Positions 2,340-3,925 of a DNA stretch of 5,159 bases are shown piece after piece; the first letter of the stretch is position 1; each line of letters starts with the position of its first letter. The position numbers were made by a program, and so were the translations under genes. Location of the stretch: positions 1 to 5,159 of IMG/VR virus record IMGVR_UViG_2529292981_000032. The stretch is one strand, 5' to 3'. The notes beneath the pieces were generated by a model. That model saw only the letters and a list, made by a program, of their open reading frames with translations, was not told the DNA's origin and made no database searches. This stretch comes from a virus. Taxonomy: Duplodnaviria > Heunggongvirae > Uroviricota > Caudoviricetes.

Positions 2340-3707
2340 ATGGCAGTAAAGATTTCAGGTGTACTGAAAGACGGCACAGGAAAACCGGTAGAGAACTGCA
2401 CCATTCAACTGAAAGCCAGACGTAACAGCGCCACGGTGGTGGTGAACACGGTGGCCTCTGAAAATCCGGATGAAGCCGGTCGTTACAGCATGGACGTTGA
2501 GTACGGTCAGTACAGCGTTATTCTGTTGGTGGAAGGGTTCCCGCCGTCACATGCCGGGACCATCACCGTGTATGAAGATTCTCAACCGGGGACGCTGAAT
2601 GATTTTCTCGGTGCCATGTCGGAGGATGACGTCCGGCCGGAGGCACTGCGCCGTTTTGAACTGATGGTGGAAGAAGCGGCGCGTCACGCTGAGGAGGCGA
2701 AGAAGAATGCCGGAGAGGCGGAGACGTCCGCGAGGAATGCCGGCATATCAGCCAGTCAGGCAGAAGAGAGCGCGGCAAATGCTGACACTTCAGCAGGGGA
2801 TGCATCGGAGTCAGCCCGGCAGGCGGCAGAAAGTGCAGCCGCTGCAAAGCAGTCAGAGGAGGCGTCCTCGTCCTCGGCCTCTGCGGCCGCTCAAAAAGCC
2901 AGTGAGTCATTACAAAGTGCAACAGATGCTGAGTTGTCAAAAAAGACGGCAGAAAGTGCAGCCGGTAATGCAGCCAGGGATGCAACGACCGCAGCAGAAA
3001 AAGCCCGGGAGTCAGCAGAAAGCGCACAGTCAGCGGAACAAAGCAGGATAGCGGCGGAAGAAGCCGTAAACAGAATCCCCACCGTGGTGGGACCTCCCGG
3101 GCCAAAGGGGGAACAGGGGCCCGCGGGTCCTCAGGGGCCGAAGGGTGATAAGGGAGAGCGCGGTGACACCGGCCCTGTCGGGGCAACCGGCGAACGGGGA
3201 CCGGCAGGTGATGCTGGTCCGGCAGGCCCGCAGGGGCCGAAAGGTGACAGGGGAGAGCGGGGAGAGACCGGTCTGACGGGAAATGCAGGTCCACAGGGTC
3301 CAAAGGGAGACACCGGTGCAGCAGGCCCGGCAGGCCCACAGGGACCGAAAGGAGAAACAGGTGCGGCTGGCCCGGTGGGGGCAACCGGACCTCAGGGACC
3401 GAAGGGCGACCCGGGGGAGACACAAATCCGTTTTCGTCTGGGGCCGGCGAGCATTATTGAGACAAACAGCCATGGCTGGTTCCCGGGTACAGATGGTGCG
3501 CTCATCACCGGACTGACCTTTCTTGCCCCCAAAGATACCACACGGGTTCAGGGTTTTTTTCAGCATTTGCAGGTCAGGTTTGGTGACGGGCCGTGGCAGG
3601 ATGTTAAGGGGCTGGATGAAGTGGGCAGTGATACAGGCAGAACAGGAGAATGTCATGAACATACTAAAAAAACTTATGCAGCGTCTGTGTGGTTGCGGAA
3701 AGCATGA
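2340..3707 (+). CDS. stf: Side tail fibre protein: conserved lambdoid Stf N-terminal attachment domain, Ala/Ser/Glu-rich shaft, 37 Gly-X-Y collagen-like triplets, short C-terminal region
   Basis: ATG at 2340 preceded by GGGGTG; the track ORF begins at an in-frame GTG at 2334. N-terminus MAVKISGVLKDGTGKPVENCTIQLKARRNS... matches the conserved Stf N-terminus as I recall it from lambda. Low-complexity A/S/E-rich segment, then a perfect G-X-Y run 3090-3422. Stop TGA 3705-3707. Confidence 0.85.
   Translation: MAVKISGVLKDGTGKPVENCTIQLKARRNSATVVVNTVASENPDEAGRYSMDVEYGQYSVILLVEGFPPSHAGTITVYEDSQPGTLNDFLGAMSEDDVRPEALRRFELMVEEAARHAEEAKKNAGEAETSARNAGISASQAEESAANADTSAGDASESARQAAESAAAAKQSEEASSSSASAAAQKASESLQSATDAELSKKTAESAAGNAARDATTAAEKARESAESAQSAEQSRIAAEEAVNRIPTVVGPPGPKGEQGPAGPQGPKGDKGERGDTGPVGATGERGPAGDAGPAGPQGPKGDRGERGETGLTGNAGPQGPKGDTGAAGPAGPQGPKGETGAAGPVGATGPQGPKGDPGETQIRFRLGPASIIETNSHGWFPGTDGALITGLTFLAPKDTTRVQGFFQHLQVRFGDGPWQDVKGLDEVGSDTGRTGECHEHTKKTYAASVWLRKA
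3090..3422 (+). repeat. Collagen-like Gly-X-Y coding repeat (37 uninterrupted triplets, mainly GPQ/GPK/GPA/GDT/GER) within the tail fibre gene
   Basis: Direct translation of frame 0 shows Gly at every third residue from codon 253 to 361; the DNA is correspondingly GC-rich and internally repetitive. Confidence 0.8.
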
Positions 3708-3925
3708 TGACCGTGAACACGGGGGAGTTACTTACAGCACAGCTGCGACTGGGGCCGGCAGACATCCTGGAGTCAGATGAGAATGGTATTATCCCGGAGC
3801 AGGACAGGGTAGTCACGCAGGTGGTGATACTGGATGCGGATAAAAAGCAGATACAGTGTGTGGTAAGACCGCTGCAAATCCTGCGTGCTGACGGGACGTG
3901 GGAAAATATTGGCGGGATGAAGTAA
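3704..3925 (+). CDS. Small hypothetical protein (73 aa) apparently translationally coupled to the tail fibre gene; alternatively the displaced C-terminal domain of the tail fibre (see findings)
   Basis: ATGATGA overlap: ATG 3704-3706 overlaps the tail fibre stop TGA 3705-3707. Frame 2 is open from 3668 to TAA 3923-3925 with protein-like composition (MMTVNTGELLTAQLRLGPADILESDENGIIPEQDRVVTQVVILDADKKQIQCVVRPLQILRADGTWENIGGMK), followed by a strong terminator. No family recognised. Confidence 0.45.
   Translation: MMTVNTGELLTAQLRLGPADILESDENGIIPEQDRVVTQVVILDADKKQIQCVVRPLQILRADGTWENIGGMK

Follow-up and report, generated by a model that had tools for sequence, protein, structure and literature searches.

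A collagen-like tail fibre gene and its small downstream gene in a prophage of Escherichia coli PA40: two private changes at a junction of known layout

The domain architecture of the EPclA proteins, collagen-like side tail fibres of prophages, was defined by Ghosh et al. (2012), who expressed the Sakai orthologue ECs2717 (437 amino acids, aa) as a trimer and proved the PfC domain to be a trimerisation domain (PMC3368898). We analyzed the 3' end of a gene of this type in a stretch of 5,159 nucleotides (nt), hereafter the window, which comprises positions 1 to 5,159 of the IMG/VR virus record IMGVR_UViG_2529292981_000032. It corresponds to bases 2-5160 of contig AKLQ01000011.1 of E. coli PA40, a lineage II/clade 7 O157:H7 isolate (PMC4587872), and the contig begins inside gene J. 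An earlier sequence-only reading had proposed that a run of seven A's (A7) near the end of the fibre gene might be an undercalled A8 or a site of -1 slippage, through which the fibre would be fused to about 85 further residues that could form a receptor-binding or chaperone domain. Comparison with related loci points elsewhere: the region is very probably an ordinary late-gene junction of an enterohaemorrhagic E. coli (EHEC) lambdoid prophage, composed of an EPclA fibre gene and a gene for an 89-aa PfC protein, which carries two private changes and involves no recoding. The layout of this junction is already known and well annotated, with nothing new in it, and the window holds a damaged copy of it, whether by error or by mutation.

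The EPclA locus of the Sakai prophage Sp14 (ECs2717/ECs_2716, WP_001023407.1) has the gene order J, lom, fibre, small gene and tccP, as does the window, and its fibre has the same domain set of PF08400, coiled coil, collagen and PF06820. Over positions 3300-4000 both sequences share 99.4% DNA identity, with identical Shine-Dalgarno (SD) sequence, ATG and A7 tract. They differ in that the window has TGT for the TGA stop and five G's (G5) for four (G4), with a fibre of 455 instead of 437 aa and a split small gene; moreover, the chromosomal context of the window is that of the tccP2 prophage by serX/hyaA (Sp4-like), not that of Sp14. The fibre of the window follows the EPclA order of a PfN domain (PF08400), a coiled coil poor in Leu, Val and Ile, a single Gly-X-Y collagen domain and PfC (PF06820). 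Pfam matches were obtained for PF08400 at residues 1-133 (E = 9e-69), for Collagen at 251-309 and beyond and for PF06820 at 363-426 (E = 3e-38), with the coiled-coil region visible in the translation; no Pfam match was found past residue 426. Its length as read departs from the 437 aa of the EPclA form with a 111-aa collagen domain: the usual end, about 11 residues past PfC (...GSDTGRTGE), is replaced by an extra CHEHTKKTYAASVWLRKA through the change of TGA to TGT.

We determined the usual form of the junction from related loci. From IMG/VR we took 80 loci that encode the small protein, 78 of them with a readable junction, and a flank-anchored survey over all related loci collected scored the fibre stop in 81, the A-run in 82 and the G-run in 83 loci. 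The equivalent of 3651-3653 is a TGA stop in 81 of 81 loci. Every one of the 78 readable junctions reads GGAG[A/G]ATGAcATG and is followed by a small protein of 89 aa; the SD region is GGAGAATGAcATG in 77 of them and GGAGGATGAcATG in one. The geometry AGGAG-N6-ATG, with the TGA ending 1 nt before the ATG, is likewise common to all 78, and in the window the SD and the ATG are intact and the stop is mutated. Fibre orthologues are annotated with 1314 nt in Sakai (ECs_2717), EDL933, Z1323CEC0001, 8368 and PA20, and in every one of these, the annotated complete genomes that we inspected, the small gene is a separate coding sequence (CDS) of 270 nt that begins 1 base after the fibre CDS, named "phage tail fiber C-terminal domain-containing protein" by NCBI.

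In this normal layout, the fibre ends at its TGA and, after one further base, the small gene begins at the ATG served by AGGAG; it would be translated by coupling or re-initiation, giving co-ordinated amounts of fibre and small protein. Coupled phage late genes carry the SD within the upstream gene and have stop and start within a few bases. The relatives share these features, with TGA-C-ATG and an AGGAG located 6 nt upstream in the last codons of the fibre, whereas the upstream stop in the window record has moved 54 nt downstream. Two translationally coupled genes had in fact been listed as an alternative in the sequence-only reading, which was right in substance on this point, and the homologous fibres ending near 3707 with a separate small downstream gene, which it had named as refuting evidence, do exist and refute its headline of a fused fibre. 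Knowing the canonical TGA-C-ATG junction prevents the fibre from being annotated as frameshifted or extended.

Alignments to Sakai Sp14, Z1323CEC0001, 8368 and PA20 revealed exactly two differences at the junction (3653 and 3721-3725; Table 1), which lie 68 nt apart. The stop loss lengthens the fibre by 18 codons, to 3707. The G-run that is extended in the window has four bases in 83 of 83 related loci (GGGG in 81, GGGC in two). Homologous places were searched among 5,426 complete E. coli genomes. The 60-mer 3624-3683 containing T3653 had no exact match at 5,584 places in 697 complete genomes, the best being one mismatch away, and the 64-mer 3692-3755 containing G5 had none at 2,705 places in 663 complete genomes, the best differing by one gap. 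The exact 455-aa fibre is recorded on a single contig, AKLQ01000011.1 of assembly GCA_000267105.1, and the exact 73-aa open reading frame (ORF) that the extra G creates in frame 2 on one contig, compared with 965 contigs for the intact Sakai allele. The "internal" SD-ATG, the "slippery" tract and the several open frames of this record thus follow from a stop loss and an extra G. A suspicion of a homopolymer undercall, raised before, was justified insofar as a length change is involved; it concerns, however, the G-run and not the A-run, an extra and not a missing base, and it stands beside the stop substitution at 3653.

Table 1 Features at the fibre/small-gene junction (positions of the window)
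Feature	Position	Strand	Remarks
Collagen-like side tail fibre gene, canonical extent	2340..3653	+	437 codons and stop in relatives; from alignment to orthologues
AGGAG, Shine-Dalgarno of the small gene	3644..3648	+	6 nt 5' of ATG 3655
Fibre stop codon, destroyed	3651..3653	+	TGT here, TGA in relatives (A to T at 3653)
Fibre extension by read-through	3654..3707	+	With the new Cys codon 3651-3653 reads CHEHTKKTYAASVWLRKA, then TGA 3705-3707; out-of-frame reading of the small-gene start
Small gene, 89-aa stand-alone Phage_fiber_C (PfC) protein	3655..3925	+	Broken here: frame 1 over 3655-3720, then frame 2 to TAA 3923-3925
A7 tract	3666..3672	+	Last base of codon 4 (CTA) and codons 5-6 (AAA AAA), Leu-Lys-Lys of the small gene
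ATGATGA	3704..3710	+	New frame-0 stop overlapping two frame-2 ATGs; in the intact gene internal codons AAG CAT GAT GAC (K-H-D-D)
G5 run with one extra G	3721..3725	+	+1 frameshift in the small gene; four bases in relatives
Intrinsic terminator-like hairpin, 11 pairs, with T-run	3940..3974	+	Closes the unit of fibre and small gene, before convergent tccP2

As read, the fibre ORF occupies frame 0 from 2334/2340 to 3707. Direct reading and an ORF listing bore out the positions claimed earlier for AGGAG, the frame-1 ATG at 3655, A7 and ATGATGA. The SD-ATG lies indeed inside the fibre ORF of this record, but solely through the lost stop. The three frames are not all open across the whole junction, as had been stated: frame 1 is open from 3517 to 3777, between stops at 3514-3516 and 3778-3780, and frame 2 is interrupted by TGA at 3656-3658 and TAA at 3665-3667, leaving only the 37 nt of 3668-3704 free of stops in every frame. 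Elsewhere in the window such three-frame gaps reach 184 nt, and the longest gap in shuffled windows averages 113 nt; the 37-nt gap is unremarkable and well within chance. That the frame-0 stop overlaps two frame-2 ATGs (3704 and 3707) is accidental and due to the position of the next stop in frame 0.

The small gene reads MNILKKLMQRLCGCGKHDDREHG in frame 1 and, with one G deleted, goes on as ELLTAQLRLGPAD...GGMK, which the window has in frame 2. The resulting 89-aa protein is a single residue (V/I) off Sakai ECs_2716 and matches PF06820 at residues 28-89 and phrog_576 over residues 1-89. The extra G of the record splits what would be an uninterrupted ORF of about 89 aa (MNILKK...CGCGKHDD... 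followed by PF06820) into a frame-1 piece of 41 aa without the domain and a frame-2 piece of 73 aa in which PF06820 is complete (residues 12-73, E = 1e-35). If both changes were real, they might act together, with ribosomes stopping at ATGATGA and re-initiating at ATG 3704 or 3707 to produce a PfC protein of 72-73 aa that lacks the Cys/His-rich N-terminus, by which the frameshifted small gene would be rescued in part. The overlap of the stop with two ATGs, the domain retained complete in the 73-aa ORF and the short distance between the private changes would suit such a rescue. Yet neither change occurs independently elsewhere, no SD precedes 3704, both changes would need to be real, and random lesions can be expected to produce a coincidence of this kind occasionally, so that we regard the rescue as barely plausible.

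The conservation of the A7 tract bears directly on the proposed fusion. Seven A's are present in 82 of 82 related loci with the site located, which refutes an undercall in the A-run. Where A8 does occur, in 15 of 78 loci, it arises from a change of the following C to A (L7I), without any insertion and with the gene length unchanged. All 81 loci scored for the fibre stop have it 13 nt ahead of the tract; as the fibre terminates upstream in all relatives, ribosomes translating it never reach the tract. It is only in the PA40 record that a -1 slip on the A-run leads from frame 0 into frame 2, reading ...HEHTKKNLCSVCVVAESMMTVNTGELL... up to the TAA at 3923-3925, and in favor of a fusion it may be said that this joins the fibre to the frame-2 PfC ORF, a bona fide tail-fibre domain (PF06820). 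The fibre, however, already carries a PfC domain of its own, and the register of the tract does not suit it: the fibre frame ACT AAA AAA ACT gives T_AAA_AAA, and A_AAA_AAA fits frame 1, that of the small gene. A stimulatory structure downstream was not detected either, the segment 3673-3760 folding at -24.4 kcal/mol compared with a shuffle mean of -27.0 kcal/mol (z = +0.84), and no regulatory hairpin more stable than shuffles was found in 3620-3700 (z = +0.12). Programmed -1 sites such as lambda G/GT and dnaX (A_AAA_AAG) resemble the tract in that A7 can be written as A_AAA_AAA. They differ from it in the register, which fits the small gene with the tract at its codons 4-6, in the lack of a downstream structure and of a conserved trans-frame product, and in that the upstream gene stops before the tract. 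The undercall or slip into an additional domain is thereby refuted, and as an account of the junction it is almost certainly wrong.

Fused products were sought with a concatenated query of fibre end and small protein against 5.8 billion proteins. Fused ORFs are rare (P0001-P0004 and P0025, each with 1-5 member sequences) and are made by frameshifts elsewhere: they shift into frame 1 upstream of ATG 3655 and not at the A-run, P0001 and P0003 doing so at the T-run 3553-3559. This T-run is located inside the PfC domain of the fibre, and frame 1 contains no stop from 3517 up to and past the small-gene start. A natural fusion of fibre and small protein was considered on the basis of these ORFs and rejected, since rare ORFs with frameshifts elsewhere are no evidence for a real fused form. 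Many database members of the gene-pair family are similarly broken fragments from draft assemblies. We also considered a prfB-like +1 shift at GAA-TGA-C that would join both genes and rejected it, reasoning from the prfB mechanism that tRNA-Glu cannot re-pair on AAT.

The ordinary junction with two private changes leaves the source of these changes to be weighed. Private changes were scored within the 3,352 nt of the window covered by at least five related loci, and at least seven were found, namely substitutions at 1672, 1730, 3653 and 3812 and indels at ~1424, ~2159 and 3721. The substitutions at 1672, 1730 and 3812 occur in none of 55-82 aligned related loci; through that at 3812, the small protein has Val instead of Ile. 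The hya-app chromosomal part of the same contig, 8,509 nt in length, is by comparison 100.0% identical, without indels, to many complete O157:H7 genomes. Seven private changes in 3.35 kb of prophage compared with none in 8.5 kb of neighboring chromosome, in a clonal lineage, favor consensus error in a collapsed multi-copy region; if the seven were spread by length, the probability of all falling in the prophage part would, by our own arithmetic, be 0.28^7, or ~1.4e-4. The 701 bases around the junction match about 700 complete E. coli genomes at a median of 12 places per genome, as well as 296 phage records. In the study that describes PA40, an Illumina HiSeq 2000 was used to sequence the genomic DNA of the strains, and prophage similarity was said to make such drafts hard to assemble (PMC4587872). 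A 26-strain announcement from the same centre covers the neighboring prefixes AKLV and AKLW and does not name PA40; for its strains, either 100-bp paired Illumina reads or a hybrid of Illumina and 454 data were obtained, and Velvet or Celera was used for assembly (PMC3593324). We therefore consider it reasonably probable that both junction changes come from consensus or assembly error.

Several points weigh against this interpretation of the junction. The stop loss at 3653 is a substitution at a base where every paralogue has A, which is not easily explained by homopolymer miscalling or by mixing of paralogous reads. The flanking chromosome was assembled perfectly over 8.5 kb, so the assembly as a whole is not a poor one. 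The prophage site is naturally mosaic, with different J alleles in PA20 and 8368, and some complete O157:H7 genomes carry real frameshifts in tccP2 and in J (the latter in 8368 and EDL933). In addition, the translational coupling of the normal layout is a deduction from the junction geometry. The frameshifts of tccP2 and J in complete genomes make real decay of the prophage plausible, and both changes may be genuine in PA40, where a decaying tccP2 prophage would have been hit in J, lom, the fibre stop and the small gene, leaving real pseudogenes or variants. The closest full-length relative, with its truncated effector gene and EspV fragment, is in line with such decay. The density of private changes, far above the shared neutral rate, their absence from any other assembly and a repeat of about 12 copies, beyond the resolution of 100-bp reads, argue against it, and we retain genuine mutation as a credible but less probable source.

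The window itself shows a composite identity. No complete genome holds it at 99% identity or above. Compared with 8368, at the same chromosomal site, it is identical over 1-1031 and, apart from having 423 nt fewer of tccP2 repeats, from 3927 to ~5125, where the aligned overlap ends, and differs in the patches 1032-1107, 2879-3179 and 3537-3926, the last of which matches the Sp14 copy. Fibre and small gene (2500-3930) form a patchwork: from one 200-nt segment to the next, a different paralogous prophage copy is the identical one, and 3400-4100 agrees with the Sp14 copy in spite of flanks that belong to the Sp4-like tccP2 prophage. We considered this patchwork as proof of misassembly and set it aside as suggestive only, since J alleles differ at this site between PA20 and 8368 as well, both of them complete genomes. 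For annotation, a caution follows: short-read drafts of EHEC fibre regions with about 12 copies yield lost stops and homopolymer shifts that mimic recoding signals or fused proteins, and protein databases already contain many broken or fused fragments of the fibre/small-gene pair.

The small PfC gene is a paralogue of part of the fibre, an observation that stands apart from what the sequence-only reading had noted. Its protein is 32% identical to the PfC domain of the fibre itself (3655-3925 versus 3426-3617), and ahead of PfC it has a Cys/His-rich N-terminus of 25 residues (CGCGKHDDREH). A search of PDB sequences with the 89-aa protein gave no match below E = 0.5, a literature search found no functional study of the gene, and an AlphaFold2 model from an 18-sequence alignment is unreliable (mean predicted local distance difference test score, pLDDT, 51; predicted template modelling score, pTM, 0.29). 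Since it is paralogous to a proven trimerisation domain and has a Cys/His-rich N-terminus, the small protein may be a fibre-tip partner or assembly factor. The lambda stf-tfa pair, in which a PF08400-type side tail fibre is likewise followed at once by a small gene of the same operon (relation to stf in PMC3368898), makes an assembly or partner role plausible by analogy; the small protein here is, however, a PfC paralogue (32% identity) and not a member of the Tfa family. A two-part reading in which the coupled junction has undergone a real two-hit rewiring with re-initiation and the small gene is a new kind of fibre-tip partner or assembly factor appears highly improbable to us. The role of the conserved small PfC paralogue is the one biological question touched here, to which the window adds nothing new.

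Further lesions and neighboring features were seen in the window, which represents the tail end of the lambdoid prophage and has the gene order J, lom, collagen-like fibre and small gene, followed on the opposite strand by tccP2 and a fragment of EspV. The 3' end of gpJ (ORFs 7-1440 and 1394-1609) is split by an extra G at 1421-1426, ACCGGT in place of the ACCGT of 29 of 29 loci. Close by, in comparison with 8368 and PA20, J has a 2-base difference at about 1351-1356 and two indels (1390/1400) that compensate each other. Gene lom (1677-2279) is frameshifted at 2153-2160, where TGGGGG replaces the seven bases (TGGGGGG or TGGGGAG) of 56 of 59 loci, and its true C-terminus lies in the overlapping ORF 2153-2275. 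This run is only nearly private, as one other locus shares TGGGGG and two more have six-base runs; it is a recurrent trouble spot. The proline-rich effector gene tccP2 with its EspF repeats (4051-4407, minus strand) has 423 nt, or three 141-nt repeats, fewer than in 8368 and PA20, reflecting either collapse of the tandem repeat during assembly or a true contraction, and it is annotated as frameshifted even in complete O157:H7 genomes. The EspV fragment occupies 4977-5159 on the minus strand and is followed in related complete genomes by tRNA-Ser and the hya operon; from this and from hyaA, which comes next in the source contig, the site of the prophage is seen to be serX/hyaA.

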